DNA of 64,000 nucleotides from Candidatus Limnocylindria bacterium (lineage in GTDB: Bacteria > Chloroflexota > Limnocylindria > P2-11E), in contig JBOGTG010000103.1 in NCBI GenBank assembly GCA_050692175.1, forward strand, positions 1,363-65,362, read 5' to 3'. Positions 24,569 through 40,643 of this stretch are shown here, in pieces. Positions within the stretch are counted from its first letter, which is position 1. Each line of letters begins with the position of its first letter. The notes under the pieces were generated by a model that did not search any database, was not told the origin of the DNA, and saw only the letters and a program-made list of their open reading frames with translations. The position numbers and the translations under genes were made by a program.

Positions 24569-24580
24569 GCAGCCGCCCGC

Positions 24581-25045
24581 TTGTGTCCGCGGCGCAACCA
24601 GGCGATGCCGGCAGGAAATCTCCTTTGCGCGGCGCCGAAACCCGGGAATGACGCCTTCGTCATGCGTCCTGGCGCCTCGCGGTCCATGCTGATCGCGTTG
24701 CCACGCAATCGAATTCCGCGCAGTCAACGCGTGGCTCCTCTTAGCGTTGCCGATCTTCAGATCGACGCTCTTCAGCCGCGCATCAGTCAGGGGACGCGCG
24801 AGCTCAAGCTCTCTCCGGGCGAGCACGTCATCCTCTACACGCTTGCGGCGAGAGTCGGTGCCGTGGTGGCCTACCGCGAGATTGCGTACGCCCTGGGGCC
24901 TCCCGATGGAGAGGTCCGCAACAACACGCTCGCGCGCCAAATCAGTAGCCTGCGCCGCAAGCTCCGAGACGATGCGGACCATCCCCGCTACATCGAGACT
25001 GTCCGTGGGATCGGCTATCGCTTGCTGGCCGGGCGCGAGACCTGA
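24581..25045 (+). CDS. Stand-alone OmpR/PhoB-type winged-helix DNA-binding domain protein (no receiver domain)
   Basis: LSVADLQIDALQPRISQGTRELKLSPGEHVILYTL..REI..RQISSLRRKL..IETVRGIGYRL. The start is uncertain. Confidence 0.6.
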   Translation: MCPRRNQAMPAGNLLCAAPKPGNDAFVMRPGASRSMLIALPRNRIPRSQRVAPLSVADLQIDALQPRISQGTRELKLSPGEHVILYTLAARVGAVVAYREIAYALGPPDGEVRNNTLARQISSLRRKLRDDADHPRYIETVRGIGYRLLAGRET

Positions 25046-25115
25046 GCGACACGCTCCACGCGCGGTAGACCGATCCGATGACCAATGCGTCATGGCAGGT
25101 GCAGGCCGATCACGC

Positions 25116-25505
25116 ATGCTCCATCGAAGAGTCATGCCAAACGACATTCCGAGACCAATCGATCCCGTCGCCGTCATGACGGCCGAGCAGCAGATGCTGA
25201 CGCCTCGCAACGAGAAGCGGATGCGCGCTCTGCTCGAGGCTCTCTGCGACCCCGCCCGCATCAAGATCGTGCGTGCCCTGCGCGACACAACGCTCGCGGC
25301 AAGTGACCTCGCCCACGTCATCGGCCGCAACCGTTCCGCGACAAGCCAGCACCTCAGAGTCCTGCGGGAACTCGGGGCGATCGTCGCGAGCCGCAAGGGC
25401 AACGTCGTCCGGTACACGCTCTCGACCGATATGTCCGGCTCGATCATCGAAGAGGCCGCGTCCGTCTTCGACCGGCTGCAGCCCGAGACCGCGTCCGCCA
25501 CGTAG
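25116..25505 (+). CDS. ArsR/SmtB-family transcriptional regulator
   Basis: LLEALCDPARIKIVRAL..LAASDLAHVIGRNRSATSQHLRVLRELGAIV. Alternative starts lie at 25134 and 25176. Confidence 0.8.
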   Translation: MLHRRVMPNDIPRPIDPVAVMTAEQQMLTPRNEKRMRALLEALCDPARIKIVRALRDTTLAASDLAHVIGRNRSATSQHLRVLRELGAIVASRKGNVVRYTLSTDMSGSIIEEAASVFDRLQPETASAT

Positions 25506-25603
25506 TCCTCGGGCGGGGCCCTCGCGCGCGCATCCGAGCGCGTCCCCTGGTCTGGTCCTCGTGTCGGCTTGACGGAGGTGGCACCGCGCCCGAGTGTCGG
25601 CCC

Positions 25604-26074
25604 GTGCGGCTCGGCTTGATCGCGCTCGGGGTCCTCGCGCTCGTGATCATCGGGTCGTCGGATGCCTTCGAAAGCACACGCCAGCTTGGCGATCTCTCCG
25701 AGCGCAGCCGGCCGATGCTGACGCCCGCCGGCGCAACGCTCAGCGTCGTCAGCTTCGCGCTTTCGACCGCGGTCTACATCGCGCTCGGGATTGCGCTGGC
25801 GCGATCGCTGTCGACCGAGCGGGCTGCGGTGATCAGCGGGCTGGCCACGGGTCTTGCTGCGGGACTGATCGGAGGAACGATCCGCGCTGTGGCCGCGAGC
25901 GACTACGTCGGCAGGACTGTTAGTCGCTACGGGCTGGGGATGGAATTCCTGGTCGCCGTCCTCGCCGTGTTCGTCCTCGTCTCGATGCTCGTGAGCGCCG
26001 CGGGTGGCGCCACGATTACTTGGCTGAGCTTCCGGGGTGTTCCTCGGCGTCCGATGCCGCGACCTCCGAGCTGA
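25604..26074 (+). CDS. Hypothetical membrane protein (4 TM)
   Basis: Hydrophobic segments only. The 3' end converges on and overlaps the HD-GYP gene by about 59 nt. Confidence 0.45.
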   Translation: MRLGLIALGVLALVIIGSSDAFESTRQLGDLSERSRPMLTPAGATLSVVSFALSTAVYIALGIALARSLSTERAAVISGLATGLAAGLIGGTIRAVAASDYVGRTVSRYGLGMEFLVAVLAVFVLVSMLVSAAGGATITWLSFRGVPRRPMPRPPS

Positions 26075-27002
26075 TCCGCTCGAGCACGCCTTCTTTGGCG
26101 AGGGCGACGAAGCCGGCGACGATCGCGGGATCGAAACGCTCCCCCGCCCCCGACTCGATGGCTCTGAGACCGGCCTCGGCCGACCAGGCGTCCTTGTATG
26201 GACGCTTCGAGGTGAGCGCGTCGAATACGTCAGCGACGGAAACGATCCTCGCTGCGAGCGAGATCTCGTCGCCCTTCTTTCCGTCCGGGTAGCCCTTTCC
26301 GTCCCAGCGCTCGTGGTGCTCGCGCGCGATGGCGCGCGCGGTCTCGAAGAACCGCGCGGTGCCGAGCATCTTCTCGCCGTCGATGCAGTGCTGCTTGATC
26401 ACGCTGAACTCGTCGTCCGACAGGTGGTGCTCGCTCTGAAGGATGTGGTCGGGCGTGTGGATCTTGCCGACGTCGTGCATGACGCTGGAGTAGCCGAACT
26501 CCTCGACCAGCCCGGAGGGCAGATCCAGCCGCTCGGCGATCGCCTCGACATACCGGCGCACCCGCTGGAGGTGCGTACCGGTGGTGCGGTCCTTGATCGT
26601 CGCGGCGAGCAGCAGGTGGCTGATGCCCTGCAGCCCGGTGCGCCGTAGCTCGTCGTTGGCGACTCGCTCCTGCTCCAGAGCGCGCTCCAGCTCCTGACGG
26701 CGCTCGCGCTCGCTGCGAAGCATCCCGGCGAGGTCCTCCGCGTAGCGCGTCGCCTGCTTCTCCATGAGCGTCATCTGCTTGAGCTGGGACTCGAACTCCT
26801 TGCGGACGCCCTGCTCGCGCTCGTAGACCTTCGCGAAGTCCAGGGCCATGCGCATCGCCTGCGAGTTGGCCATGTCGGCCACGCGGACGGCCTGATGGAG
26901 AAGCTGACGGAAGACGTCGGCGCCGGGTGTCTGCGGAACCTCCGCCTCGCGCGGGGACACGTCGACCGTCTCGACCATGTCCTTGGTGTCGTCGTCACTC
27001 AT
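26016..27002 (-). CDS. HD-GYP domain protein (RpfG-like c-di-GMP phosphodiesterase) with a coiled-coil N-terminus
   Basis: HLQRVRRY, VMHDVGKIHTP and EHHERWDGKGYPDG motifs are intact. Confidence 0.85.
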   Translation of the reverse strand: MSDDDTKDMVETVDVSPREAEVPQTPGADVFRQLLHQAVRVADMANSQAMRMALDFAKVYEREQGVRKEFESQLKQMTLMEKQATRYAEDLAGMLRSERERRQELERALEQERVANDELRRTGLQGISHLLLAATIKDRTTGTHLQRVRRYVEAIAERLDLPSGLVEEFGYSSVMHDVGKIHTPDHILQSEHHLSDDEFSVIKQHCIDGEKMLGTARFFETARAIAREHHERWDGKGYPDGKKGDEISLAARIVSVADVFDALTSKRPYKDAWSAEAGLRAIESGAGERFDPAIVAGFVALAKEGVLERISSEVAASDAEEHPGSSAK

Positions 27003-27011
27003 CGCTTGGCC

Positions 27012-27383
27012 TTAGCTGTGCGCCAGGATTCCGCGGATCGTGTCGATGAGCTCGAGCGGTCCGAACGGCTTCGTGAGGTACTGCGTCGCGCCGGCGGCGA
27101 ATCCGATCGCGCGGTCGCTGTCGCTCTCGTGCGCGGTGAGCATCACGACGGGAATGTCCTTGGTGGCTTCGTCGGCTTTGATCTGGCGGCACACGTCGAA
27201 GCCGTTGGGGCCCGGGCCCATGTCAACGTCCAGAAGGACGAGATCGGGCTTCTCCGAGCGGACGAGCTCGAGCGCCTCATTGCCGTTCTTCGCCTCGACG
27301 ATCGTCCATCCCTGAGTGGACAGGGTGATCCGGACCATCTGACGGATGGGCACGAGATCGTCGGCCACGAGCAGTTTCGCCAT
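27012..27383 (-). CDS. Single-domain CheY-like response regulator
   Basis: 123 aa. LVADD..DLVLLDVDM..VVMLTA..TKPF. Confidence 0.88.
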   Translation of the reverse strand: MAKLLVADDLVPIRQMVRITLSTQGWTIVEAKNGNEALELVRSEKPDLVLLDVDMGPGPNGFDVCRQIKADEATKDIPVVMLTAHESDSDRAIGFAAGATQYLTKPFGPLELIDTIRGILAHS

Positions 27384-27446: not shown

Positions 27447-28151
27447 TCATGACCGTTCGGGGGAGGGACCCGATCCCCCGCGCGGGGGACCCACGCGGTC
27501 GCGGGTCCACGACTCGAGGGTGACGAGCCCGAGGCGCGCAGCCTCGGCGACGGCCTCGAGACGAGAGTGCGCGCCGAGCTTTCGCAGCACGGCCTGCACG
27601 TGCGCGCGGAGCGTCGCGGTCGATATGCCGAGCGACTCCGCCGCGGCGGTCGTGCTCGTGCCGCTCGCGAGGAGCCTCAGCACCTCGAGCTCCCGGCCGG
27701 TGAGGGGCTCGACGATCTTGCGCGAGGACGCGCTCTCGAGCAGGAGGCGCTGCAGCTCGCTCGGCGCGAACAGGATCTCGCCCGATGCGGCGGCGCGGAC
27801 ACTGTCGACGACCTCGTTCAGCCCACGCCCCTTGGTCATGTGGCCGACCGCCCCGGACCGCGCGACGTCGTTCAGCGTCACGGCGGACGGGTCCGCCGTT
27901 AGGACGAGCACCGACGTCTCAGGGAGCGACCCGCGCACGGCGCGCGCGAGATCGGCCCCGGTACCGTCGGGCAGGTGGTAGTCGGCGATCACGACGTCCG
28001 GACGGTGCTCGTTGAGGGCAGCGATCGCGGACTTCAGGTCGTGCACGACCGCAAGCACCTCGATGCCGTCGGCCGCGCGCAGCGCCACACGCATGAGCTC
28101 GGCAAAGAGCCGCTCGTCGTCGACGATGACGACGCGGATGACATCGGCCAT
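27447..28151 (-). CDS. NarL/LuxR-family response regulator
   Basis: A receiver domain (VVIVDDE..DVVIADYHLPDGTG) is followed by a LuxR HTH (LTGRELEVLRLLASG..ESLGISTATLRAHV). Confidence 0.9.
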   Translation of the reverse strand: MADVIRVVIVDDERLFAELMRVALRAADGIEVLAVVHDLKSAIAALNEHRPDVVIADYHLPDGTGADLARAVRGSLPETSVLVLTADPSAVTLNDVARSGAVGHMTKGRGLNEVVDSVRAAASGEILFAPSELQRLLLESASSRKIVEPLTGRELEVLRLLASGTSTTAAAESLGISTATLRAHVQAVLRKLGAHSRLEAVAEAARLGLVTLESWTRDRVGPPRGGSGPSPERS

Positions 28152-29461
28152 CAGCGCGCCCCGCCCGAGCGAACCTGCGAAGCGAGGGCGGCGACAACCG
28201 CCGCGTCGAGCTCGCCGCGCGCGACCGCGCTCTGAAGGATGCGAACGGCTTCCGCGTCAGAGACGGCCGGTCGGTCGGCGCGGTCCGCGAGGAGTGCTTC
28301 GAATCGGTCGGCAACGCTCACGATGCGCACCTCCAGGGGAATCTGCTCCGCGCGGAGCCCGTCCGGGTAACCCGTGCCGTCGAGCCGCTCGTGATGATGA
28401 CGCACGATCGGAAGGAGCCCCGAAAGGCGCTTGAATCCGGCCAGGATCTCCTCGCCCAGGATCGGGTGGCGCTCGAGCATGGCACGCTCCTCGGGCGAGA
28501 GCTCACCCGACTTGGAGAGCATCGCAGCGGGAAGGCGTGCGTTTCCGACATCGCGAAGCAACGAGCCCAGACGGATCGTCATCCGGGTCGACTCGTCCAG
28601 CCCGAGGGCGCGGCCGATCTGGACCGCGCGCGCAGCGACTCGCTCTCCGTGCCCGGAGCCGGGCCGGTCGTGCGAGCCGATCGCAGACGCGAGCACGATC
28701 AGGGCCTCGGCCGCGGCCTGCAGGTCGTGGTCGAGGCCGCGCTCGCGAATCAGCAGATCGACGATCCGGGGAAGCTGCGCGTCTACCGGAATCAGCTCGC
28801 CCCCGTCGTTGCCACCGCGCCCCGCGCTCAAGCGCACGACCGCGACGTCTTCGGGGACGTCGACAGGGACCGCCGCATTTCCTTCGACGAGCACGACGTC
28901 CGGCGTATCGCTCTCGTCGGCGAGATCGAAGCGCGCAAGGAGGAGCTGCTCGACGTGCTCGCGCAGGGCGGAGTCCGCGATCGCGACGCGCGCCACAAGA
29001 CGCTCGCCGGGTGCGAGCTCGATCGGACGGCCGAGTCGGGGCACACGGGGATTGCGCGCCTGCCCGAGGACAGCGTCGATCCGCGCGAGGAGCTCCGCCG
29101 CCTGGAAGGGCTTCGTGATGTAGTCGGCGGCACCGCAGGAGAGTCCGCGGACTTTGTCCACGACCACGCCGCGGGCCGAGAGGAAGATCACCGGGATCGG
29201 GGATGTCGCGGTGTTGCTCTTGATCCGCAGGCAGACGTCGTAACCGTCGGTGTCGGGGAGCATCACGTCGAGAAGCACCAGATCCGGCAGAAGCTCCTCC
29301 ACAAGCTCGATGCCGCGTCGCCCGTCGTGCGCCACCGAGACGACCATGCCGTTCGCCTGCAAGCGTCGCTGGAGCACGTCGGCGGACGCCTGGTCGTCTT
29401 CGACGACTACCACGCGGGTCGCCGGTGCGTCAGAGTGGACGCCTTCCTCTATCGCCTTCAC
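28151..29461 (-). CDS. Response-regulator receiver fused to a degenerate HD-GYP domain
   Basis: REC (VVVVEDD..DLVLLDVMLPDTDG..ITKPF). The HD-GYP domain has LLRDVGNARLP in place of LHDxGK, while HHHERLDGTGYPDGL is retained. Confidence 0.85.
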   Translation of the reverse strand: MKAIEEGVHSDAPATRVVVVEDDQASADVLQRRLQANGMVVSVAHDGRRGIELVEELLPDLVLLDVMLPDTDGYDVCLRIKSNTATSPIPVIFLSARGVVVDKVRGLSCGAADYITKPFQAAELLARIDAVLGQARNPRVPRLGRPIELAPGERLVARVAIADSALREHVEQLLLARFDLADESDTPDVVLVEGNAAVPVDVPEDVAVVRLSAGRGGNDGGELIPVDAQLPRIVDLLIRERGLDHDLQAAAEALIVLASAIGSHDRPGSGHGERVAARAVQIGRALGLDESTRMTIRLGSLLRDVGNARLPAAMLSKSGELSPEERAMLERHPILGEEILAGFKRLSGLLPIVRHHHERLDGTGYPDGLRAEQIPLEVRIVSVADRFEALLADRADRPAVSDAEAVRILQSAVARGELDAAVVAALASQVRSGGAR

Positions 29462-30246
29462 TTCTTTTTCGTTCTCTTGGTCCCATCAGTCTCGCCGAGG
29501 AGCCAGCGCATCGCCACGATGAACTTCGAGGGCCGTTCTTCGCGGGTGTTCTCCTTGAGATACGCATGGAGGTCGATCGCCCAGTGCGGGAGATCGCCGT
29601 ACCACTTCATCTCGACGATCACGTCCGGTTCCATCGCGAGGAGCGAGCCGAGCGGGGACGGGGGACCATCTGGGTCTCCTCGCGTCTCCCATGGAAGCGC
29701 GAAGTACATGAGGTTGTGGTCGGCGGTGATCCGCAGCGACGAATCGAGTGAGTTGTATGCGAGACGGTTGTACTGGGTCACGGCGACCGGCCGGGCCCCG
29801 TCCCGCAGCAGACGGACGGCTCGCTCGGCGAGCCCGTGCTCGGGATCGGGAAGGGTCGTGCTGCCTCGGAGGAACGACCGCGCGATATCCATCGACACGC
29901 CGAAACGCTCCTTCAGCGAGGTGTCCTGCTCGTCGTCTTTGAACTCGATCCATGCGGTTCCAGGGTTCAGGACCTCGCGCGGCCGGGTGCGGTGGTACTC
30001 CCGGATGCGCAGCTGCATAGCCGAGCCCTTCTCGGCGGCGCGGAAGATCGACCACGCGAGCGTGTCGCAGTAGGTCGTCGTCGACCACTGGTACGGGCGG
30101 TCGTCTCGCGAGAGTGGAAGGTTATTTGCGGTCGTGCGCATGACCAGGCGCGCGATGCTCTCGCTGACCTGGAAACGGTGCTCGTGGCGGCGCTCGGCAT
30201 CCGCCTCGTGTGCCGGGGCGGCGGGGGTCGTCACTGTCGTGCTCAC
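29458..30246 (-). CDS. VTC-domain (polyphosphate-polymerase-like / CYTH-like) protein
   Basis: RHEHRFQV.., TTTYCDTLAW, QLRIREY, AWIEFKDDEQDTSLKERF and VTQYNRLAY..LRITADHNLMYF follow the bacterial VTC pattern. GTG 30246 lies just after the upstream TAG. Confidence 0.72.
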   Translation of the reverse strand: MSTTVTTPAAPAHEADAERRHEHRFQVSESIARLVMRTTANNLPLSRDDRPYQWSTTTYCDTLAWSIFRAAEKGSAMQLRIREYHRTRPREVLNPGTAWIEFKDDEQDTSLKERFGVSMDIARSFLRGSTTLPDPEHGLAERAVRLLRDGARPVAVTQYNRLAYNSLDSSLRITADHNLMYFALPWETRGDPDGPPSPLGSLLAMEPDVIVEMKWYGDLPHWAIDLHAYLKENTREERPSKFIVAMRWLLGETDGTKRTKKK

Positions 30247-30247
30247 C

Positions 30248-31744
30248 CTACTCGGTCGCATCGGCCGCCACCGCGAGGACTCCGCGCCTGGTGAGCGCGA
30301 CGCGCACTCCGTGCTCCACATCCGCGGGGATCGCGCCGTCGAGCGTCCGGAGGAGCTTCTCCGGAACAGCGCCGTGCTCCGTGGAGAGCATTTCCGCCGC
30401 GCTGAACCTCACTTCCGGGTCGATCGAGCTGAGATTCGCGACGATGCGCCGCCCGAACACCCTCATCGTGTGCCACGCGTTGTAGACGTACACGCCGGAA
30501 AACCCAGTCGCAAGGGCGAGGAGGAGCCGGTTGTCCTGCAGCTGGAGGCCGGCAAGCAGCGCAACTGCGGCCGCGAAGTTACCGAAGGCATTGACACCGC
30601 CGGAGAGGAATGCGCGGGCCCGCGGGCGGATCGCCGACTCGACCTGGCTGTAGATGAGCTCGGTCGCCGGGCGGTGTATCGCCGGGATCACGATGCGTTC
30701 GCCGAGCTGGATCGCCACGCCGGCGAGGAAGGCGATGCCCGCTCCGGTGAAGGTCAGTGCGGCTGCGGCGAAGCTCCCGAGATACCAGAGCGGCAGCAGG
30801 AAGAGCACGCGGCTGATCCCCATCCAGCGGAGAAGGCCGCTCGTGATGACGCTCTGGATGAAGATCGCAACGAGCGACGAGCTCGTGTAGATGCCGGCGT
30901 AGAGCTGGCTGAAGAGGTCCTCGCTCTGCGTGCCGGTCCCCGCGGTCTGCTGGTCGAGACCCACGAGGTAGAGGAAGTTCCCGAACTGCATGAGGAAGTA
31001 CCAGAAGAAGACGCCGACGCCAAACGTTCGCAGCATCTTGTCCGACGTAACGGTCCGGTAGCCCTCGACGGAATCCTTGAGCACCGCCCGGGCGCCTCTC
31101 GGGCGCTCCTCATCGGCACGGCTCCCGTGTCCCTCGGGAAGCCTTCGGTAGATCACCAACGCGACGAAGCAGACCAGGAAACCAACTGCCTGCGCGCCGA
31201 TGAAGTTTTCGGCGTGGATGACCGGCGCGATTCCCGTGCCAACCGCGCCGCCAAGTATTTTCCCGACCAGGACGGAGCCGGCGAAGAACGGAAAGAGCCG
31301 CTTCGACTGCTCGGTCCCGTAGAGGTTCCCGGCGTAGACCCAAAAGAGGATGTAGATCGTCTCCTTCACGCCGTGCGCGAAGACGTAGGAGATGGGCTGT
31401 ACTAGCCACCCATTCGAGAGCTGGTCCTGATACCAGACGCCGGCCTGGATCGCGACCGAAAGGAGCGTGACGCCGGCGACGTACCAGAGGAGGAGCGTCC
31501 TGCGGCGGACGCGATCGACGAAGAAGAAGATCATCGCCGAGACGGCGAGCATCGCGATCGGCGTGACGATATACATGACGGGCACGTAGTTGACGCCCCA
31601 GCGCTTCACGAAGAGCGCATCGGCCCCGAGCTTGCCGACCCAGTCGGACGCCACCATGAGCGTCAGCAGGGCGTAGAGGAAGAGGCCGAGGCCCCACTCA
31701 CCACGTCTAAGCGGGAATGCATCGCGGAGGACGCGCCCGAACAT
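30248..31744 (-). CDS. Polytopic transporter resembling ATP/ADP-translocase-like (TLC/MFS) carriers, with a C-terminal HEAT-like tail
   Basis: About 12 TM. The N-terminal pattern resembles TLC-family starts. The C-terminal soluble tail reads ..DPEVRFSAAEML... Confidence 0.55.
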   Translation of the reverse strand: MFGRVLRDAFPLRRGEWGLGLFLYALLTLMVASDWVGKLGADALFVKRWGVNYVPVMYIVTPIAMLAVSAMIFFFVDRVRRRTLLLWYVAGVTLLSVAIQAGVWYQDQLSNGWLVQPISYVFAHGVKETIYILFWVYAGNLYGTEQSKRLFPFFAGSVLVGKILGGAVGTGIAPVIHAENFIGAQAVGFLVCFVALVIYRRLPEGHGSRADEERPRGARAVLKDSVEGYRTVTSDKMLRTFGVGVFFWYFLMQFGNFLYLVGLDQQTAGTGTQSEDLFSQLYAGIYTSSSLVAIFIQSVITSGLLRWMGISRVLFLLPLWYLGSFAAAALTFTGAGIAFLAGVAIQLGERIVIPAIHRPATELIYSQVESAIRPRARAFLSGGVNAFGNFAAAVALLAGLQLQDNRLLLALATGFSGVYVYNAWHTMRVFGRRIVANLSSIDPEVRFSAAEMLSTEHGAVPEKLLRTLDGAIPADVEHGVRVALTRRGVLAVAADATE

Positions 31745-31749
31745 CGGCG

Positions 31750-33300
31750 TTATTGCCCCGCGGGGGCCTGGTCAGCCGCGGGCAGCGTGAACTGGACGAT
31801 GGCGCCGCTCTCGCCGGGGTTGACCACGTTGATGGTGCCGCCGTGGAGCTCAACGGCGAGCTTGCAGAAGGCCAGACCGAGCCCACTACCTCCCCGGCTC
31901 CGACCGGCCCCCTGATAGAAGCGGTCGAAGATGTGCGGGGCATCCTCAGCGGGGATGCCCGGTCCGGTGTCATGGACGCGGATGACGATCGAGCTCTCGA
32001 GCTTGCGGTCGCGCGCGCTCTCGATACGCACCTTTCCCCCGCTCGGCGTGTGTTTGACCGCATTGGCGAGGAGGTTCGTGAGCACCCGCACGATGAGGCC
32101 GTCGTCGACGAACACGTTGACGTCTTGGGGGAGCGCGCTCTCGACTTCAATGCCCTTCGCGAGCGCTTCGGGCGCCACCTGCGCGATGCTCCGTTCGGCG
32201 AGTCCCGCGAGCGCGATCGACTGCGGCATCGCCTCGAGCTTGCCTTCCTCCATCTTGTAGACGTCGAGGAGGGCGTTGACCATCCGCAGCAGCTCGCTGA
32301 TGTTCGACTCCGAGAGTCGCAGGAGCTCGTCGAACTCCTGACGGCCCGGCTGGAGCTGGCCCATCCGGACCAGCTGCATGAACGCGACGACGCTGTTGGC
32401 GAGGTTCCGAATGTCGTGGCCGAGCATGCCGATGAGCTCTTTGCGCGACTGCTCCATCCGCTTGAGATCGCCGGCCGTCTTCCGCAGCTCGTCCTGCAGA
32501 CGCTTGGTGAAGATGGCACTGCGAACGCGAGCGGCGAGCTCGATCGGTTCGAACGGCTTGGTGAGGTAGTCGATGCCGCCGACCTCGAAGCCCTTGCTCA
32601 AGTCTTCATACCGATCCTTCGCCGTGACGAAGATGACCGGAATGTCCGCCGTCTCCGGCTGGGACTTGAGACGGCGGCAGGTCTGCCAGCCGTCGATACC
32701 CGGCATCATCACGTCGAGCAGGATCAGATCGGGTTGCTCGCTCCGCGCAAGCGCGATCGCGCGCTCGCCGGAGCTCGCCACCTGCGTCTGGCAACCGATG
32801 GCCTCGAGGCGTCGCGCCAGAAGCTCCACGTTCGCGATCTCGTCGTCCACGATGAGCACGCGTCCAAGCGTGATCGGCACCGGCCCCCGCACAGGCGGGG
32901 TCGCGCCGTCGCGCGCGAGCGGCACGTGCGCGGCTCCGCCCGGGAAGTACCGGAGGAGGATCGCGCGCAGCTCCGCCGGCGCGAAGGGCTTGGAGACGAA
33001 GTCATCGCAGCCGGCCTCGATCGCGCGGGCCCGGTCCGACGGAAGCGCCAGCGCCGAGACGGCGATGATCGGGATGCTCGCGGCCCACGGCTCGGTGCGG
33101 AGAGAGCGCGTAAGGCTCCAGCCGTCCATCCGCGGGAGCAAGAGATCGACGAGGATCGCGTCGGGCCGCTCGACCCGCGCGAGGTCGAGCCCCGCCACGC
33201 CATCAGCCGCCACCAGGGCCTCGTGACCCGAGGCGCGGATGATTCGCGACGCGACGTCGAGGTTGTTCGCGTCGTCCTCGACGACCAGCACTCTCGCCAT
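31750..33300 (-). CDS. REC-REC-HisKA-HATPase hybrid histidine kinase
   Basis: Two receiver domains (VLVVEDD.., VLIVDDE..DLILLDVMMPGIDG) are followed by the GHDIRN H-box and the GGSGLGLAF G2 box. Confidence 0.9.
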   Translation of the reverse strand: MARVLVVEDDANNLDVASRIIRASGHEALVAADGVAGLDLARVERPDAILVDLLLPRMDGWSLTRSLRTEPWAASIPIIAVSALALPSDRARAIEAGCDDFVSKPFAPAELRAILLRYFPGGAAHVPLARDGATPPVRGPVPITLGRVLIVDDEIANVELLARRLEAIGCQTQVASSGERAIALARSEQPDLILLDVMMPGIDGWQTCRRLKSQPETADIPVIFVTAKDRYEDLSKGFEVGGIDYLTKPFEPIELAARVRSAIFTKRLQDELRKTAGDLKRMEQSRKELIGMLGHDIRNLANSVVAFMQLVRMGQLQPGRQEFDELLRLSESNISELLRMVNALLDVYKMEEGKLEAMPQSIALAGLAERSIAQVAPEALAKGIEVESALPQDVNVFVDDGLIVRVLTNLLANAVKHTPSGGKVRIESARDRKLESSIVIRVHDTGPGIPAEDAPHIFDRFYQGAGRSRGGSGLGLAFCKLAVELHGGTINVVNPGESGAIVQFTLPAADQAPAGQ

Positions 33301-35594
33301 CAGCGTGCCGACCCGGTTCGCGCAAGGAGAGCGGTCTCGCTGCCGGCGCGCACCCGGATCGGCAGGGTGAAGTGGAACGTGCTTCCGCGCCCGACCTCGC
33401 TGTCGACCCAGATGCGCCCACCGTGCAGCGTCACGAGGCGCTTGGAGATCGCGAGGCCGAGCCCGGTGCCGCCGTACCGGCGCGTCGTAGAGCTGTCGGC
33501 CTGGCGGAACTCGTCGAACACGTAGGCCTGCGCTTCGGGGCTGATGCCGACACCCGTGTCGGCAACGGAGACCGTGACCCAGCCTTCGGCTGCGCTTGCC
33601 GCGACCGAGACCGTGCCCCGCTCGGTGAACTTCACCGCGTTGGCCAGCATGTTCGCGAGGACCTGACGGACTCGCGCCCGGTCCGCCCAGACGTTTGGCA
33701 GCCCTTGCGGGATGAGGGCGCGCACCTGCAGGCCCTTCTCGTCGGCGTTCGGGCGGACCAGCTCGAGCGCCTCGTCCGTGACGTCGGTGATGTTGACCTC
33801 CTCGACGTTGAGCTCCATCTTGCCCGCCTCGATCTTCGCGAGATCGAGCAGGCCGTTGATGAGACCGAGCAGGTTGTCGGCGGCCTGCGCGACGCGGAAG
33901 AGGTCGGTCTGCTGCTGCGCGGTCATCTCGCCGTCCAGGCCATCGAGCATCAGCTTCGTGTAGCCGATGATCGCGTTCATCGGCGTGCGGAGCTCATGGC
34001 TCACCGACGCCAGGAACTCGCTCTTCAGCCGGTTCGCTCGTTCGAGCTGCAGGTTGTTGACGCGCAGCTCGCCGACGAGGTCGGCGTTCTCGTTCGCGAC
34101 CGAGACCAGACGAGCGATCGTGCGCAGAGCCCGCGCCTGCGTATCGGTGAGCTCGCGCTGATCGTGAAAGTACGCGGACAGGAGCCCGATCGTACGGCCG
34201 CGCGCCGAGAGCGGTACGTGCGCGACGAATCGCAGCTCGCCCGCCGACACAGCCGAGAGCCGGATACGGTCGGCGTCGGCCTCGGAGCGAACGAGCACGC
34301 GCATCGCGAGCGTCACCGCAATCTCAGCGTCGATGCCCACCGTGGCCGGCGCGGAGAGGCGCCCACCGGAACCGGGCGGCGCTCCGGGCGGATCCTCTCG
34401 GATGACGATGGCGCCACCGTCGGCGTTCAGGAGCGAGACCATGCGGTCGAGGGAGCGCGCGAAGATCCGCTCGGCGTCGGTGACACCGACGACCGCATCC
34501 GCGACCTCGTTGACGGCGCGGACCTCGTCGAGGTACTCGCGCTGCGCGCGCTCGCGTTCATAGAGTGACGCGGCCATCGTGTCGAATGCGCGCTCCAGGG
34601 TGCCGATCTCGTGTGGCGACACCTGCCGCACACGCGCCGCGAGGTCGCCCGCCTCGATCCGCTGCGCGGCGGCAGCGAGGCTCTCGAGCGGCGTGGTGAT
34701 GCTCTTCGCGGTGCGGTAGCTGAGAAACGTGACGGCTCCGATGAGGCCGAACCCGAGGACGATGAGGATGCCGATGAGGGTCCGCTGCGCCTGCTCGACC
34801 GGCTCGGTCGGCACGAGGACGGCCAGCAGGCCGGGGTTGGCGCGCTGGGCTGCGAGTACGCGGAAGATGCCGTAATAGTTTCGGCTGTGGGCTGTGATGT
34901 TCTGGATCAGGACGTCACTCGGCTGGCCGTCGACCTGGAAGGTCGTCGGGAACATGGTGTTCGACCCGAAGTCGACGGTGGACGCCCGAACCTGGCCGTT
35001 CCAGATGAGCGCGAGGTCCGCCGTCGACCGGGCCTTGATGTCTTTGAGGAACTCCGAGTTGAGGCTGTTGCCCACCTCGAGGATGCCGATGTCGTTCGAC
35101 TCGGCGTCGCGGATTAGCGCCATCGCGCGGATCACGAGGCCTTCCGGTTCGTCGTAAAGGAACGCTTGCCCTTGCGCCCCGGCCTTCGCGTACTTGACGA
35201 GCTCCGGCTCGAGGGTGTCGCTCTTGTTCGCCTGGGCGCCGGCGATGATGAGGCCGTTCATGTCGGCGATGTTCATCACGTCGACGTCGAGGCGCGACTT
35301 CACAGGCAGGAGGAAGGCTTGCGTTCCCTCGACATCCCGCCGTTGGGTCAGCTCGCGAGTCGTCGGCAGTCCGGCCGATAGACCCGCGGCCTTGAGAGCG
35401 GCGTCGGACTGGTCCTCGATCTCCTTCAGCGCCACGTCCGCCAGGATCTGCGACTCGTCTTCGAACTGCTTGAGGATGAGCTGGTTCGACTCGTAGATCG
35501 CGACCGCGGTCATGACCACGAGCGCAAGGACGCTCACCAGCACGTTGCGGCTGACGAGCGCCCTGAGCAAACTCGGCGCGAAGAGCTTCTCCAT
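33300..35594 (-). CDS. Sensor histidine kinase (extracytoplasmic Cache-like domain, HAMP, GAF, HisKA, HATPase)
   Basis: Two TM segments flank a domain of about 250 aa. HAMP (..IEAGDLAARV..), SHELRTPMNAI H-box, GTGLGLAISK. Confidence 0.9.
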   Translation of the reverse strand: MEKLFAPSLLRALVSRNVLVSVLALVVMTAVAIYESNQLILKQFEDESQILADVALKEIEDQSDAALKAAGLSAGLPTTRELTQRRDVEGTQAFLLPVKSRLDVDVMNIADMNGLIIAGAQANKSDTLEPELVKYAKAGAQGQAFLYDEPEGLVIRAMALIRDAESNDIGILEVGNSLNSEFLKDIKARSTADLALIWNGQVRASTVDFGSNTMFPTTFQVDGQPSDVLIQNITAHSRNYYGIFRVLAAQRANPGLLAVLVPTEPVEQAQRTLIGILIVLGFGLIGAVTFLSYRTAKSITTPLESLAAAAQRIEAGDLAARVRQVSPHEIGTLERAFDTMAASLYERERAQREYLDEVRAVNEVADAVVGVTDAERIFARSLDRMVSLLNADGGAIVIREDPPGAPPGSGGRLSAPATVGIDAEIAVTLAMRVLVRSEADADRIRLSAVSAGELRFVAHVPLSARGRTIGLLSAYFHDQRELTDTQARALRTIARLVSVANENADLVGELRVNNLQLERANRLKSEFLASVSHELRTPMNAIIGYTKLMLDGLDGEMTAQQQTDLFRVAQAADNLLGLINGLLDLAKIEAGKMELNVEEVNITDVTDEALELVRPNADEKGLQVRALIPQGLPNVWADRARVRQVLANMLANAVKFTERGTVSVAASAAEGWVTVSVADTGVGISPEAQAYVFDEFRQADSSTTRRYGGTGLGLAISKRLVTLHGGRIWVDSEVGRGSTFHFTLPIRVRAGSETALLARTGSAR

Positions 35595-35642
35595 AGCCCG
35601 AGCTAGCCTTCCTCCTCGGCGATCACGCGGGCTCGGTGTGGC

Positions 35643-36506
35643 TTAGAGGCCCGCGAGGATCTTCTGGCCTTCGGGTCCCTTCACGAAGTCCAGGAAGGCC
35701 CTGATCGCAGGCTTGACCGTCGCCGGGTTGTACACGAAGTAGAGGGGTCGACGGACCTGGTACTTGCCGCTGGTCAGGTTTTCGCGGTTCGCCTGCACTC
35801 CGTCGATGGTCACAAAAGCGATCTGCGCGTTGCCAAACGTGCTCGCGTTCATCGTGACCATGCCAATCGACTCCTTGAAAGAGTCGATCGCCTTCACGGT
35901 CTCGTCGATTTTCGTGACCTCGATCGCTGCGGGGGCGTACGTCGGCTTCTTCCCGTCGTAGAAGTACGCCTCGAACGCGCTGCGCGTCGATGACCCGGAT
36001 TCGCGGATGAGCACGCGGATCTTCCCCGCGGTGCCGCCGACATCCTTCCAGTCCGTGATCTGACCGGTGAAGATTCTTGCGACCTGGTCTTTCGTCAAAG
36101 CCTTGACCGGGTTGGACGCGCTCACGGCGACCGCGGTGCCGCTCGCGCCGATGGAGACCGACTCGACCTTGCCCTTCTCCGCGTCGCGGAGATCACGGCT
36201 GATATACCCGAGGTCAGTCTCGCCGCTGACGGCGAGATTGACGCCCGCGTCGGAGCCGACGTCCCCCAGGCCTTGCCAGGTGATCGTCGGGTGGATCTTC
36301 TGGAAAGCGTCGGCGACTGCCCTAACGTTGTCGAGCGCCCCGCCGCCGCCGTTCACGATGTACTGTCCCGCGAGCGGGTCGGCCGTCGCAGCCGTGGGCA
36401 GCCCGGCTCCGCCGCAGCTCACTGCGAAGAGCGCGGCGAAGATGATCAAAGGCAGTGTCCGCAAACGACGCATTCGGGCCCTCCTCATTGGGTCGAATCG
36501 TGACAT
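35643..36506 (-). CDS. PstS-family (PBP-like) phosphate/anion-binding lipoprotein
   Basis: Lipobox FAVSCGG, ..IFTGQITDWKDVGG..IRVLIRESGSSTRSAF.. It is the first gene of the signalling operon. Confidence 0.78.
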   Translation of the reverse strand: MSRFDPMRRARMRRLRTLPLIIFAALFAVSCGGAGLPTAATADPLAGQYIVNGGGGALDNVRAVADAFQKIHPTITWQGLGDVGSDAGVNLAVSGETDLGYISRDLRDAEKGKVESVSIGASGTAVAVSASNPVKALTKDQVARIFTGQITDWKDVGGTAGKIRVLIRESGSSTRSAFEAYFYDGKKPTYAPAAIEVTKIDETVKAIDSFKESIGMVTMNASTFGNAQIAFVTIDGVQANRENLTSGKYQVRRPLYFVYNPATVKPAIRAFLDFVKGPEGQKILAGL

Positions 36507-36652
36507 TAGTCTCTGACCTTTGTATAGGCAGGTCTATCCCTCTGACGGCCGATTCGCGTTACACATTGGGATATTCGTGAGCTAATCCATTTGCTCTAGT
36601 CGACACCGAAAGTGGACCAAAAGCGTCCGAAAGCGCGGCATACTCTCGCGGG

Positions 36653-37729
36653 ATGAGCGAAGGGAGCCCGGCACTGCGAGCGCAAACCGCACCACGCCGC
36701 ATCGCGGACCTCGACATACGAGGGAGTCACCGGGTCGTGCCGCTCACCCTTATCGCGGCCGCCGGGGTCGCGGCCATCTGGCTCGTCGACATCTCGACCG
36801 GACCCGACTTCGGCTTTGCGATCTTCTATCTGATCCCGGTCGGGCTCGCGAGCTGGTGGCTCGGGCGCACGTCCGGGGTGGCGATGGCCCTCCTTTCGGC
36901 GGTCGCGTGGATCTGGGCCGATCTCGTCGCGCATCCGGAGGTTTCTTCCTCGGCGAGCGTCTGGAACGGGCTCACTCGCGCGGCGATCTTCCTGATGCTC
37001 GCTCTGTTGATCGATCAGGTACGCCGCGAGCGCATCGCGCTCCGGAGCGTCGACGCGCACCGGGAGGAGTCGCTCGCCCTGATCGCGCACACGCTCCGGC
37101 GCTCGGCGGGTGAGATCGAGTCGGCGATCCCCGATCTCACGAAAGCACCTGCTCTCTCGGCAGCGGAGCGGAGCGCGATCGACGAGCTGCGCCGGCAGAG
37201 CCGCAACTTCAAGCGCTTCGCGGATGACGTCCTCGAAGTCGGACAGCTCGAGGCGGGGCGCTTCCGGCTTAATCGCGGACGTTTCGATCTCTCGGAATTC
37301 GTCGCAACACTGGTCAAGGAGACCGACCGCGATCGTTTGCAGCTCGTCGCGGAATCCGATCCCGTGTGGGTCGACGCCGATCCGGCACGTCTGCGCACCG
37401 CGATCGAGCACATCCTCAACAACGCGCTGCGCTTCTCTCCTCCGGGGTCGACCGTCCACGTGACGGTGGGGCAGCGCGATAACCGGGCGCGCGTCCTCGT
37501 GAAGGATCAAGGCGTCGGCCTCGCCCGATCGCACGTGCGCGTGATCTTCCGCAAGTACGGTCGGATCGAGACCGCCGCGACGAAGGACAAGATCGGCGTC
37601 GGCCTCGGTCTCTACGTCGCGCGCTTGATCGTCGAAGCGCAGGGCGGCACGGTGGCCGCGAGCAGCGTCGGGCTCGGGCTCGGGTCCACCTTCACGCTGG
37701 ACCTGCCGCTTGCCTCGCACCAAGCCTGA
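36653..37729 (+). CDS. Membrane sensor histidine kinase
   Basis: Four N-terminal TM segments, H-box LIAHTLRRS, C-terminal HATPase (GVGLGLYVARLIVEAQGG). Confidence 0.85.
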   Translation: MSEGSPALRAQTAPRRIADLDIRGSHRVVPLTLIAAAGVAAIWLVDISTGPDFGFAIFYLIPVGLASWWLGRTSGVAMALLSAVAWIWADLVAHPEVSSSASVWNGLTRAAIFLMLALLIDQVRRERIALRSVDAHREESLALIAHTLRRSAGEIESAIPDLTKAPALSAAERSAIDELRRQSRNFKRFADDVLEVGQLEAGRFRLNRGRFDLSEFVATLVKETDRDRLQLVAESDPVWVDADPARLRTAIEHILNNALRFSPPGSTVHVTVGQRDNRARVLVKDQGVGLARSHVRVIFRKYGRIETAATKDKIGVGLGLYVARLIVEAQGGTVAASSVGLGLGSTFTLDLPLASHQA

Positions 37730-37744: not shown

Positions 37745-38113
37745 ATGGCCAAGATCCTCGTGGTGGAGGACGACCCGAACAATCTCGAGCTGGCGCTCCG
37801 AATCGTGAGGCACGCCGGCCACGAAGCGACCGTCGCCACGGATGGTTTCGCCGCGCTGGAGCTCGCCCGCGAGCACCGGCCGCAGCTCATCCTCCTGGAC
37901 CTCCAGCTTCCGAAGCTCGACGGCTGGACCGTCGTCAAGCTCCTGCGCAAGGAGACCTGGGCGAAGCACGTGCCCATCGTGGCGGTCTCCGCCTCGGCCA
38001 CGCCTGGAGACGAAAACAAGGCGCTCGAGGCCGGCTGCACGGCCTTCCTCTCGAAGCCCTACTACCCCGCGGCCCTCCGGGAGATGCTCGCGCAATACCT
38101 GCCGGCGGCCTGA
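37745..38113 (+). CDS. Single-domain response regulator (paralogous to the first REC of 31750..33300)
   Basis: MAKILVVEDDPNNLELA..LILLDLQLPKLDG..LSKPY. Confidence 0.9.
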   Translation: MAKILVVEDDPNNLELALRIVRHAGHEATVATDGFAALELAREHRPQLILLDLQLPKLDGWTVVKLLRKETWAKHVPIVAVSASATPGDENKALEAGCTAFLSKPYYPAALREMLAQYLPAA

Positions 38114-38636: not shown

Positions 38637-39653
38637 ATGAGCCCGAACGTCGTGCTCCCGCTCCTTTCCTCGCTCGTCAGCTTCGTCTTCGCGGCCGCCG
38701 TGCTCGCGCAGTGGTCGCGCCGCCATCGCACCTTTCAGCTCGTGTGGGCGGTCGGCTTGCTCTGGTACGGCATCAGTGCCGGCACCGAGTTCCTCGGCTC
38801 GGCGTTCGGATGGAACGAGGGGCTCTACCGGGCGTGGTACCTCATCGGCGCGTTCTTCGTCGCCGCGTATCTGGGCGCCGGCACGATTGTCCTTCTCGCG
38901 CGCACGCGATTCGGCTACTTCGTCGCCGCGAGCTTCGTGGTCGGCGCCCTCTACGCGTTCGCCATCCGCGGACGCTATCCCGAGGACACCACCGCGTTCG
39001 CCAGTGTGTTCGTGGCGTGCCTCGCCGCCGCGATCGCGATAGCGATCGCGACATGGCGCGCGCGGCCCCTCGTTGCCCCGATCACACTGGCCGTCCTTGG
39101 CATCGGCTCGGTCGTCGCCGCCGGGCTTGTGCTGGGCGCGACGCTCGACGCGCCGTTCGCGCTCGACGCCACGACCGGCGTCCCCGTGGGTAGCGCGATA
39201 CCGGGGAACATCCGGATCCTTGCCGGTCCGTTCAACATCATCGGAGCCTTCGCTCTGGTGGTCGGCGCGATCTTCAGCGCCTACGTCTTCATGCCGAAGG
39301 AGCGCGTCCTCGGCCGGCGCGTGCTTCCTCCCGTCGTCGCGCAGATCTACGGAGCGATCGCAGTCGCTGTGAACTTCTTCGCTTCCCTGCCCCGCGCCGC
39401 GGTCGCGCTCGCGCGCGGCGAGCTGCACTCACGTGTACCGGCGACGCTCCTCATCGCGCTCGGCGGCTTCATCCCCGGCGTGACGAGCGGAATGAACCGC
39501 TTCGGCATCACCTGGGCGTTCTACCTCGGCGAGCTCCTCGGCGTCCTGTTGATCTTCGCCGGATTCGTCGTGAGCACGGAAGTCTTCGGCGAGCGATTCC
39601 GTCTCGGTCCGGTGGTCGTGCGCCGCAACGAGGAAGAGGTCCCGGCGACCTAA
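38637..39653 (+). CDS. Polytopic membrane protein, function unknown
   Basis: 338 aa with about 9-10 hydrophobic segments and good GC3. Confidence 0.55.
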   Translation: MSPNVVLPLLSSLVSFVFAAAVLAQWSRRHRTFQLVWAVGLLWYGISAGTEFLGSAFGWNEGLYRAWYLIGAFFVAAYLGAGTIVLLARTRFGYFVAASFVVGALYAFAIRGRYPEDTTAFASVFVACLAAAIAIAIATWRARPLVAPITLAVLGIGSVVAAGLVLGATLDAPFALDATTGVPVGSAIPGNIRILAGPFNIIGAFALVVGAIFSAYVFMPKERVLGRRVLPPVVAQIYGAIAVAVNFFASLPRAAVALARGELHSRVPATLLIALGGFIPGVTSGMNRFGITWAFYLGELLGVLLIFAGFVVSTEVFGERFRLGPVVVRRNEEEVPAT

Positions 39654-39662
39654 CATCGCGCG

Positions 39663-40643
39663 GTGCTCGTCCTCTCGCGGTCGGATGTCGAAGGACTACT
39701 CGATCTGGATCGGCTGCGCGAGACAGTCGCGCGTGCCATGGCGGATCTCTCCGCGGGTCGCGTCTCGATGCCGGCGCGAATCGCGGCGCTCGTGCCTGAG
39801 CGCGATGCGTTGCTGGCTGCGATGCCGGCCTACCTACCGTCGTCGGGCGCGCTCGCGACCAAACTCGTGTCGCTGTTCCCGCGGAACACCGACCGGCCGA
39901 CGCATCAGGCGGTCATCGTCGTGTTCGATGCCGATAACGGCAGTCCGCTCGCGCTGATGGACGGGGAGGCGATTACCGCGGCCCGCACCGCCGCCGGATC
40001 GGCGCTCGCCACCGACCTCCTCGCGCGTGAGGATCCCTATCGCCTCGTCGTCATCGGGACGGGCGTTCAGGCGCGGGCTCACCTGCGCGCCGTGTCGCGC
40101 GTCCGCAGGTTCGGCTCGATCTGCGTGGCCGGGCGCGACCTGGGGAAGGCCAAGGCCCTCGCGCAGGAGTTCGGCGGGGGCAGCTTCCGCCAGGTCGGAG
40201 CCTACGTTGACATCCAGCAGGCGGTGCGCGAGGCCGACGTGGTTTGCGCGTGCACACACAGCGCGGAGCCGGTCGTTCGGCGCGAGTGGCTCAAACCCGG
40301 TGCCCACGTGAACTCAGTGGGATACAACACCGCTGGTCGCGAGGTCGACGGCGCGACGTTCCGCGACGCCCTCCTGGTCGTCGAGTCACGCGCCGCCACG
40401 CTCGCGCCTCCACCCGCGGGGTCGAACGACATCGCCATGGCGATCGCCGAAGGCGCGATGACGCCCCAGCACGTCCACGCCGAGCTCGGCGAGCTGGTGA
40501 GCGGCACGCGGCCGGGCCGCGGAGATCCGGCGCAGCTCACGCTCTACAAATCGGTCGGAGTGGCGGTGCAGGATGCAGCGGCCGCCGCGATGGTGCTCGA
40601 GGCCGCGCGCGAGGGTGGCGTGGGACGGTCGATCGACCTTTAG
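39663..40643 (+). CDS. Ornithine cyclodeaminase/mu-crystallin family NAD(P)H enzyme (candidate pyrroline-2-carboxylate reductase)
   Basis: ..RLVVIGTGVQARAHL.. Rossmann motif, family-typical N-terminus, 326 aa. Confidence 0.85.
   Translation: MLVLSRSDVEGLLDLDRLRETVARAMADLSAGRVSMPARIAALVPERDALLAAMPAYLPSSGALATKLVSLFPRNTDRPTHQAVIVVFDADNGSPLALMDGEAITAARTAAGSALATDLLAREDPYRLVVIGTGVQARAHLRAVSRVRRFGSICVAGRDLGKAKALAQEFGGGSFRQVGAYVDIQQAVREADVVCACTHSAEPVVRREWLKPGAHVNSVGYNTAGREVDGATFRDALLVVESRAATLAPPPAGSNDIAMAIAEGAMTPQHVHAELGELVSGTRPGRGDPAQLTLYKSVGVAVQDAAAAAMVLEAAREGGVGRSIDL

Follow-up and report, generated by a model that had tools for sequence, protein, structure and literature searches.

Why would a VTC protein, a relative of yeast Vtc4, be encoded in the middle of an operon of signalling genes, and what might such an operon sense and control? 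The question is raised by a 64,000-nucleotide stretch of DNA from a Candidatus Limnocylindria bacterium (GenBank assembly GCA_050692175.1, contig JBOGTG010000103.1, positions 1,363 to 65,362 of the forward strand), the whole of which we call the window. An earlier reading of its letters, the original prediction, had described a tightly coupled seven-gene operon linking a PstS-like binding protein, two histidine kinases, a TLC/HEAT-like transporter, a VTC protein, a REC-HD-GYP protein and a NarL regulator. We find that the operon is real and conserved and that, as far as detected, it occurs only in one class of uncultured bacteria. The explanation that we prefer, and hold tentatively, is that it would encode a branched two-tier two-component system in which sensing of a phosphate-type anion is combined with a receiver-controlled, Vtc4-like enzyme. 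A signalling role in phosphate or polyphosphate metabolism is plausible from the protein families involved.

An open reading frame (ORF) check of the window located all seven minus-strand ORFs at the coordinates first given, and the six recomputed junctions agree with those originally listed. The PstS-family (PBP_like_2) lipoprotein, a presumed extracytoplasmic ligand-binding co-sensor (35643-36506), is separated by a 48-nt gap from a membrane histidine kinase, HK1 (33300-35594), which overlaps by 1 nt a cytoplasmic second-tier kinase, RRHK (31750-33300). After a 5-nt gap comes a carrier of about 12 predicted transmembrane segments (30248-31744), followed by a 1-nt gap and the VTC gene (29458-30246) if the latter starts at GTG 30246. 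VTC overlaps by 4 nt the gene for a response regulator with a REC domain and a degenerate HD-GYP domain (28151-29461), which in turn overlaps by 1 nt that for a NarL/FixJ-type DNA-binding response regulator (27447-28151). All seven genes of the original prediction stand, but the unit is larger: Pfam identifies two additional genes on the same strand after the NarL gene, a single-domain receiver (27012-27383) and then a stand-alone HD-GYP protein (26016-27002). The operon comprises nine genes on the minus strand. Its originally proposed domain calls, including the degenerate HD-GYP, were right in every case, and NCBIfam holds no equivalog for any of the seven proteins first described. No Hpt domain was matched by Pfam in any of 11 proteins, so the arrangement is a two-tier kinase cascade and not a classical phosphorelay; the word phosphorelay was applied to it loosely. 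Two starts have alternatives. Met12 of the lipoprotein, at 36473, is preceded by a GAGGAGG ribosome-binding site that is kept in relatives and is more likely to be the true start, and ATG 30261 of VTC is the start called in close homologues.

To what extent is this arrangement shared? Scanning the VTC alignment against one genome per species gave 67 loci, for which a synteny table was made by tblastn. Gene order is identical throughout these loci (lipoprotein, HK1, RRHK, the carrier where present, VTC, REC-HD-GYP, NarL, REC, HD-GYP). Of the outcomes that would have refuted the original prediction, an order unique to this genome did not arise, and neither did a lack of profile support for VTC. 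The single receiver and the stand-alone HD-GYP gene occupy the same position in 55-59 loci. No locus that spans the position of VTC is without it, and the gene invariably lies between the kinase or carrier and REC-HD-GYP. The junctions recur as well. The most constant of them is the 4-nt overlap of VTC with REC-HD-GYP, found in 62 of 66 loci. HK1 and RRHK overlap by 1 nt in 31 of 52 loci, RRHK and the carrier by 4 nt in 21 of 41, and carrier and VTC are joined by a 4-nt overlap or a 1-nt gap in 33 of 44. A gap of 50-60 nt lies between the NarL and REC genes in most of 58 loci, and in the majority of loci 7-10 nt separate the REC gene from the stand-alone HD-GYP gene that follows it. An order and tight junctions that are repeated in 67 loci put the arrangement far outside what chance would give. 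The lipoprotein and the carrier are the components that diverge most between clades (41-43% and 46-49% identity, respectively).

The closest homologues come from uncultured soil metagenome-assembled genomes (MAGs) and carry the names Chloroflexota and Candidatus Limnocylindria, as do the majority of the 67 loci; five records of the SMAG catalogue are named otherwise. These five (L006, L010, L061, L062 and L067) were deposited as Udaeobacter, Bathyarchaeia, Acidiferrales, Dormiibacterota and Saccharimonadales, respectively. They hold the same operon, with VTC proteins 49-95% identical to that of the window, and their names likely reflect mis-binning or mislabelling in the MAG catalogue. Two other loci, L027 and L038, are contigs of one MAG, SMAG_U6255, whose copies both span RRHK to the single receiver and include carrier and VTC; either duplication or strain heterogeneity would account for the pair.

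The VTC protein is 262 amino acids long and has no hydrophobic segment by hydropathy, as expected of a soluble protein. It matches the Pfam VTC family (PF09359) at 61 bits against a cut-off of 23, over profile positions 2-233 of 235, which confirms the original domain assignment. An AlphaFold2 model built from the family alignment has a predicted local distance difference test (pLDDT) score of 88, and its top Foldseek match is Vtc4 (3g3q; E = 2.5e-13, template modelling (TM) score 0.62). Vtc4, Vtc3 and Vtc2 make up the top 13 PDB matches (E = 2.5e-13 to 3e-10, TM scores of about 0.6), and triphosphatases and class IV adenylate cyclases follow as weaker structural matches (E = 3e-8 to 1e-5). 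The family profile finds Vtc4 among PDB sequences at E = 7e-7, and hhalign, with the Vtc4 sequence taken from the PDB alignment, pairs the two at a probability of 96.6%. By Pfam, by profile comparison and by its modelled closed beta-barrel tunnel fold, then, the window protein is a genuine tunnel enzyme of the Vtc4 type, a triphosphate tunnel metalloenzyme.

Apart from the position equivalent to Lys200, the residues that line up with the tunnel of Vtc4 have been retained. The hhalign alignment pairs eleven VTC residues with Vtc4 positions that we take, from the published Vtc4 structure, to be functional or catalytic tunnel residues: R86 with R264, R88 with R266, K103 with K281, K112 with K294, Y159 with Y359, R161 with R361, R172 with R373, E212 with E426, K214 with K428, S240 with S457 and K241 with K458. 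All eleven are invariant in an alignment of 38 sequences. E212, K214, S240 and K241, the only ones counted over about 70 orthologues, are conserved in 69-71 of them. An N-terminal strand of the form R20-x-E22-x-R24-F25 is present in 68 of 68 members.

Next to VTC in the window lies the carrier, a probable MFS-type protein whose predicted layout is 6+6, with about 12 hydrophobic segments. Its Pfam scores, like those of 15 divergent orthologues, are below threshold for both MFS_1 (22.3 against a cut-off of 33.4) and TLC (PF03219; 12.9 against 21), even weak TLC matches occur in only 3 of the 15 orthologues, and the family profile finds no match among PDB sequences. An exhaustive search of cluster representatives gave one full-length cluster above 50% identity and then dropped straight to 25-30%. 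These latter relatives are about 900 amino acids long and align through their 400-430 N-terminal residues, with E values down to 1.5e-28; phmmer gives 1.5e-28 against P0262 (TLC, 82.9 bits) and 2.9e-28 against P0263 (TLC, 49.3 bits). By Pfam they are fusions of TLC (PF03219) with HEAT and, in some, a cyclic nucleoside monophosphate (cNMP)-binding domain, and one of them is followed by a gene for a cNMP-binding protein, in agreement with Major et al. (2017, PMC5381601). Judged by these alignments, the carrier is clearly homologous to the NTT-HEAT carriers. Since it fails the TLC cut-off itself, the TLC call depends on transitive homology; the original description of a TLC/HEAT-like transporter is right in substance but does not survive the direct TLC check. 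The HEAT-like tail that it proposed is present, as a short cytoplasmic stretch of about 55 residues with a conserved HEAT/PBS-like motif, DPExR...A..L...VRLALTRRG, that persists even at 46-49% overall identity; HEAT_2 is matched weakly (E = 0.019) in 3 of 15 orthologues. Basic residues such as K38, K47, K127, K162 and R350 are invariant within predicted transmembrane helices. The AlphaFold2 model of the carrier, made from too shallow an alignment, is of low confidence (pLDDT 55); its first Foldseek match is AtNTT1 (E = 1.9e-7, TM score 0.62-0.67), with other MFS folds nearly equal.

The pairing of VTC with this transporter, to which the original prediction drew attention, is common but is not an invariant core. 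In the 58 loci that hold both kinase and VTC, where carrier presence was counted, the carrier gene lies between RRHK and VTC in 41 and is absent from 17. Where it is absent, the kinase and VTC genes overlap directly, by 4 nt in 16 of the 17 loci and by 1 nt in the other. In a neighbour-joining tree of four concatenated operon proteins, carrier-bearing loci fall in both deep branches, and the absence lies within one clade that retains two carrier-bearing members. Carrier divergence (46-92% identity) parallels that of the other operon proteins. With carrier-bearing loci in each of the deep branches, and with carrier and operon diverging in step, the carrier is most simply regarded as ancestral, lost at least twice, accessory and dispensable. 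A lineage-specific insertion had been considered when the first two distant loci proved to be without the carrier, and was overruled by the 67-locus survey and the tree.

What, then, might feed this system? The lipoprotein matches Pfam PBP_like_2 at 106 bits against a cut-off of 27, in line with the family proposed for it originally. Its best solved relative is the PstS protein 4gd5 (E = 2.4e-32), and all its significant solved relatives are phosphate-binding proteins. The lipobox cysteine is present in 44 of 44 sequences. Residues S85, D105, R168, T174 and R175 are conserved, and the conserved serine, aspartate, arginine and threonine align with what we take to be Ser38, Asp56, Arg135 and Thr141 of E. 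coli PstS. No ABC permease or ATPase gene adjoins the operon among about 30 window ORFs and the called genes of three related loci. One clade has an additional PstS-like gene after the final gene of the operon (L034, 7442-8173; L036, 14357-15142; L037, 14295-15134), and its products are 42-45% identical to the window lipoprotein.

HK1 has the Pfam architecture dCache_3-HAMP-GAF-HisKA-HATPase, hydrophobic segments at residues 18-36 and 273-291 that flank the dCache region, and the H-box SHELRTP. RRHK has the architecture REC-REC-HisKA-HATPase and no transmembrane segment by hydropathy, and it keeps Asp52, Asp196 and the H-box histidine His295. The phospho-acceptor aspartate is kept in every receiver of the system, as is the H-box histidine in both kinases. 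Divergently from the operon lie the genes for HK3 (36653-37729, plus strand), a histidine kinase with four transmembrane segments and a DUF4118-like N-terminus (Pfam HATPase_c, weak DUF4118, hydropathy), and for the single receiver REC3 (37745-38113, plus strand). REC3 is 57% identical to the first REC domain of RRHK (150 bits) and 24-34% identical to the other receivers, which bears out the paralogy originally noted between the divergent regulator and the hybrid kinase. HK3 is a conserved neighbour of the operon in the window clade.

The proteins encoded downstream of VTC are of four kinds. In REC-HD-GYP, identified by Pfam REC and HD_5 matches, the HD dyad is replaced by RD (61) or KD (4) in 65 of 65 orthologues and GN replaces GK, while GYP is intact and HHExxDGxGYP is kept; the protein is a variant that is fixed and presumably non-hydrolytic. 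By contrast, the stand-alone HD-GYP protein (Pfam HD_5, 131 bits), of the phosphodiesterase type and with a charged helical N-terminus, is canonical, with HD and HHExxDGxGYP each in 56 of 56 sequences. The approximately 30 ORFs of the window that were scanned include no GGDEF gene. The NarL-type regulator has REC (68.7 bits) and GerE (57.4 bits) domains and retains Asp57. The single receiver (Pfam REC, 92 bits) is the most conserved protein of the cluster, with 81-100% identity in nearly all loci and 69-73% in two. It also matches cREC_REC, described as a cyclic-phosphate processing receiver, at a borderline 28.2 bits against a cut-off of 27, and an unusual DVDMGPGPNG stretch follows its acceptor aspartate.

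The sequences show the gene content, the coupling, the fold, and the conservation of genes and residues. In our preferred explanation, whose steps are read from domain architecture and for which we infer the ligand, the order of phosphotransfer, the enzyme reaction and the adaptor role, the membrane-anchored PstS-family lipoprotein would bind an external phosphate-type oxyanion and serve as co-sensor for HK1. HK1 would phosphorylate a receiver of RRHK and thereby set RRHK activity, and the two kinases would feed three receivers: those of the NarL-type factor, the single receiver and REC-HD-GYP. The degenerate REC-HD-GYP protein would be a phosphorylation-dependent adaptor that switches VTC as the SPX domain switches Vtc4. 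VTC would perform gamma-phosphate chemistry on ATP, triphosphate or polyphosphate, with synthesis of short polyphosphate as the most likely reaction. The carrier would be an accessory that supplies or exchanges nucleotide or phosphate, or senses one of them. The system would have three outputs: a transcriptional one through the NarL-type regulator, a cyclic-dinucleotide-type one through the canonical HD-GYP protein and an enzymatic one through VTC. No other link in the operon is as constant as the VTC/REC-HD-GYP junction, a hint that the tunnel enzyme is under the control of the receiver protein.

Several observations weigh against this explanation. It is gene coupling, and that alone, which suggests the adaptor role. 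The position equivalent to Lys200 of Vtc4, which we take to be essential for polymerase activity, is arginine in 68 of 68 members, whereas a canonical Paenibacillus VTC has lysine; since it is always arginine, the chemistry may differ from that of Vtc4. By Pfam, neither the operon nor its scanned neighbours encode a membrane partner of the DUF4956 or VTC1 type. None of pstCAB, phoU, ppk and ppx occurs among the approximately 30 window ORFs scanned. The lipoprotein scores 134.7 bits against the NCBIfam PstS family TIGR02136, under its cut-off of 206.6, and its first binding loop reads GGGGA in place of GSTS, with loss of the Ser/Thr hydroxyls; on both grounds the ligand may not be orthophosphate. 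Finally, the absence of the carrier from 17 of 58 loci means that it cannot be essential to the core mechanism.

These same points lend themselves to other accounts. The tunnel enzyme might be a hydrolase or another triphosphate-processing enzyme (an inorganic triphosphatase, a polyphosphate or nucleoside triphosphate phosphohydrolase, or a cyclase) rather than a polymerase, and it would then make or remove a small-molecule signal whose reader, in the same pathway, is either the GAF domain of HK1 or the degenerate HD-GYP domain. We consider this unlikely but deserving of serious weight. The invariant arginine, set beside the R-x-E-x-K-Y of the canonical bacterial VTC, fits such a role, as does a fold superfamily that includes triphosphatases and class IV adenylate cyclases; eight of the nine operon genes are signalling genes, the cytoplasmic GAF and the non-catalytic HD-GYP domains are candidate ligand receptors, and relatives of the carrier are repeatedly tied to cyclic-nucleotide-binding domains (PMC5381601). 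However, in both sequence and structure the enzyme is clearly nearest to Vtc4, Vtc2 and Vtc3 and not to the CyaB or ygiF types, every other Vtc4 tunnel residue is retained, and lysine to arginine is a conservative change. An account in which the operon has nothing to do with phosphorus strikes us as improbable. Here the PstS-like protein would sense some other anion or compound, and an unrelated behaviour would be controlled through cyclic-dinucleotide turnover and transcription. The score below the PstS-family cut-off and the binding loop devoid of hydroxyl residues are compatible with this, and the lipoprotein and carrier being the most divergent components is what changing ligand specificity would produce; there are also no pst or pho genes among the window ORFs scanned nearby. 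Yet all significant solved relatives of the lipoprotein bind phosphate, the residues aligned to the four PstS positions named above are conserved, and two further operon proteins, VTC and the NTT-like carrier, come from families whose substrates are phosphoanhydrides.

The place of the carrier invites a further account, also unlikely in our estimation, in which it is a transceptor resembling UhpC of the UhpABC system rather than a transporter, sensing an external phosphorylated compound or nucleotide and signalling through its HEAT-like tail to the sensor-less RRHK or to VTC. HEAT repeats are protein-interaction modules, the tail motif outlasts divergence to 46-49% overall identity, the gene sits between those for a cytoplasmic kinase and VTC with 4-nt overlaps, a NarL/UhpA-family regulator is encoded in the same operon, and the clade is fused or adjacent to cNMP-binding domains (PMC5381601). 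There is no direct evidence for such a role, though, the invariant basic residues of the transmembrane helices fit anion transport equally well, and the 17 loci without a carrier indicate that the cascade does not need it. It is hardly credible that VTC and the carrier are mere passengers, functionally unconnected to the signalling genes that surround them. The carrier is dispensable, and the parts are linked by genomic data and by no experiment; against this, VTC is found in the same place in every locus that covers its position, its 4-nt overlap with REC-HD-GYP in 62 of 66 loci is kept across lineages down to 48% identity, and in all 17 carrier-less loci the kinase and VTC genes overlap directly.

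Extending the preferred two-component explanation, one could see VTC, the catalytically dead REC-HD-GYP adaptor and the carrier as a bacterial equivalent of the SPX-VTC machinery by which eukaryotes maintain phosphate homeostasis. A phosphate-sensing kinase cascade would take the place of inositol pyrophosphate and SPX, and phosphorylation of the receiver would switch on a membrane-associated polyphosphate or oligophosphate synthase that is fed by, or feeds, the carrier. We regard this as a long shot. If it were true, it would supply a first function for both the bacterial VTC-domain proteins and the NTT-HEAT-type carriers.

How does the operon compare with systems already described? With the tunnel domain of yeast Vtc4 the window protein shares its Pfam family, its tunnel fold and the eleven invariant tunnel residues. 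It differs in having neither an SPX domain nor a C-terminal transmembrane domain, in lacking a partner of the Vtc1/DUF4956 type, in its arginine at the Lys200 position and in its location inside a two-component operon, and its role as a polyphosphate polymerase is only putative. A tblastn search of plasmids with the window VTC gave no match; with Vtc4 as query it gave one canonical bacterial VTC locus, which served as comparator. In Paenibacillaceae, VTC is followed by DUF4956 and Cthe_2159 genes, and a divergent pair of kinase and OmpR-type regulator adjoins them, in three of three loci (L075, 2712-8353; L076; L077). The original prediction had named DUF4956 or CotH as the usual partners of bacterial VTC proteins; DUF4956 is indeed found here, with Cthe_2159 rather than CotH. 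Like the window protein, the Paenibacillaceae VTC is a stand-alone protein of about 250-260 amino acids with a two-component neighbour, so such a neighbour is not unique to the window operon. It scores 184 bits by Pfam, has R-x-E-x-K-Y and is followed by DUF4956, whereas the window VTC scores 61 bits, has R-x-E-x-R-F and is not accompanied by DUF4956; and its kinase and regulator form a separate divergent unit, whereas the window VTC stands mid-operon among signalling genes, beside an NTT-like carrier. We found no characterisation of these clusters in the literature searched. The parallel gives a hint that bacterial VTC genes may in general be controlled by two-component systems.

Sensor kinases that depend on a binding protein are known from LuxP-LuxQ, TorT-TorS and AioX-AioS. 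As in those systems, the binding-protein gene here immediately precedes that of a kinase whose extracytoplasmic domain is large and of the double-Cache type, and ABC transporter genes are absent; here, however, the binding protein is of the PstS family, and gene order alone suggests its interaction with HK1. PhoR/PhoB with PstSCAB and PhoU also involves a PstS-family protein and a presumed phosphate-status signal, but the window operon lacks PstCAB and PhoU, its kinase carries an extracytoplasmic sensor domain of its own, its regulator is of the NarL rather than the OmpR/PhoB type, and it combines two kinases with four outputs of the receiver or HD-GYP kind. HD-GYP response regulators of the RpfG type include degenerate variants such as PA2572 of P. 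aeruginosa. The window operon likewise joins REC to HD-GYP and has one degenerate and one canonical HD-GYP protein; its peculiarity is that the change from HD to RD or KD is fixed family-wide and that the gene is coupled to VTC.

NTT-HEAT proteins have been described as an uncharacterised monophyletic clade linked to signalling domains, fused or adjacent to regulatory cNMP-binding domains, and a 'reverted, unfused' clade that includes Chloroflexi has been mentioned (Major et al. 2017, PMC5381601). Outside the clade of the carrier itself, no homologues come closer to it than the NTT-HEAT proteins (E = 1.5e-28, with 25-30% identity across some 400-430 residues). The carrier differs from them in its vestigial HEAT-like tail of about 55 residues, in falling below the TLC cut-off and in its neighbours, which are VTC and kinases in place of a cNMP-binding gene. 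Literature searches turned up no functional work on the window operon, on NTT-HEAT proteins or on the VTC-domain proteins of bacteria, and on Limnocylindria with polyphosphate or on PstS-type co-sensors they yielded nothing relevant beyond PMC5381601. The operon is thus built from known domain families in a combination for which, as far as we found, the literature searched holds no description. Seen nowhere else was the combination of four features: the location of VTC within the signalling operon, its translational coupling to a degenerate REC-HD-GYP gene, a PstS-type sensor, and an NTT-related carrier in the place of DUF4956.

The bacterial VTC-domain proteins (annotated as 'polyphosphate polymerase domain-containing') and the NTT-HEAT proteins are both widespread families with no experimental function found in the literature searched. 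The operon places one member of each in a conserved signalling pathway with a recognisable phosphate-type sensor, and it thereby yields testable hypotheses on substrate, regulator and physiological signal. If VTC makes polyphosphate, it would represent a PPK-independent bacterial route to this polymer under two-component control. Limnocylindria are reported to be abundant in soil and freshwater, so a phosphorus-sensing circuit common to the lineage could matter for soil phosphorus cycling. Were the operon unrelated to phosphorus, it would still be an unusually elaborate kinase cascade and would illustrate cleanly how an HD-GYP domain can be fixed in a non-catalytic form.

Within the window clade, species share 75-92% identity across the divergent intergenic and leader region that separates the operon from the HK3-REC3 pair (36474-36652), as against about 60% at the third codon positions in the genes on either side. 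This excess points to a constrained regulatory region under purifying selection. It contains a conserved TATCCC-N27-GGGATA inverted repeat and is likely an operator/promoter region, perhaps for the NarL-type regulator. Apart from the TATCCC/GGGATA pair, its short repeats were set aside as too short to tell from chance. Promoter and terminator scans gave nothing beyond shuffled expectation, and Rfam and tRNA scans of the window gave nothing.

Two conserved, unannotated membrane proteins near the operon were considered as a hidden DUF4956-like partner and rejected, with no Pfam match for either. Convergent on the stand-alone HD-GYP gene, and overlapping its 3' end by 59 nt, is a gene on the plus strand (25604-26074) for a 156-residue protein with four transmembrane segments and no Pfam match. 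In 31 related loci a homologue (38-88% identity) stands at this position, as a rule followed by an MFS_1 gene (23276-24568 in the window). The spacer of about 1 kb between these two conserved genes (24569-25603) has ORFs at 24524-25501 (minus strand) and 24747-25505 (plus strand) for which the other loci offer essentially no equivalent; the spacer of one related locus holds a UDG gene, and in another the flanking genes lie about 70 nt apart. On the other side of the operon, a plus-strand gene (38637-39653) encodes a 338-residue polytopic membrane protein without a Pfam match. It is 64-90% identical in 14 well-covered loci near the 5' side of the operon, carrier-less clades included, and its gene lies on the strand opposite the operon in the window and in L004, the one locus with called genes. 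This protein might belong to the system. Beyond it, at 39663-42566 (plus strand), are an ornithine cyclodeaminase/mu-crystallin gene, whose place near the operon is conserved in distant loci too, and a proline racemase-family gene. Farther along, two tandem plus-strand genes that overlap by 4 nt (45367-48647) encode proteins of 557 and 536 amino acids with dynamin-N/GTPase matches, resembling a bacterial dynamin-like protein pair.

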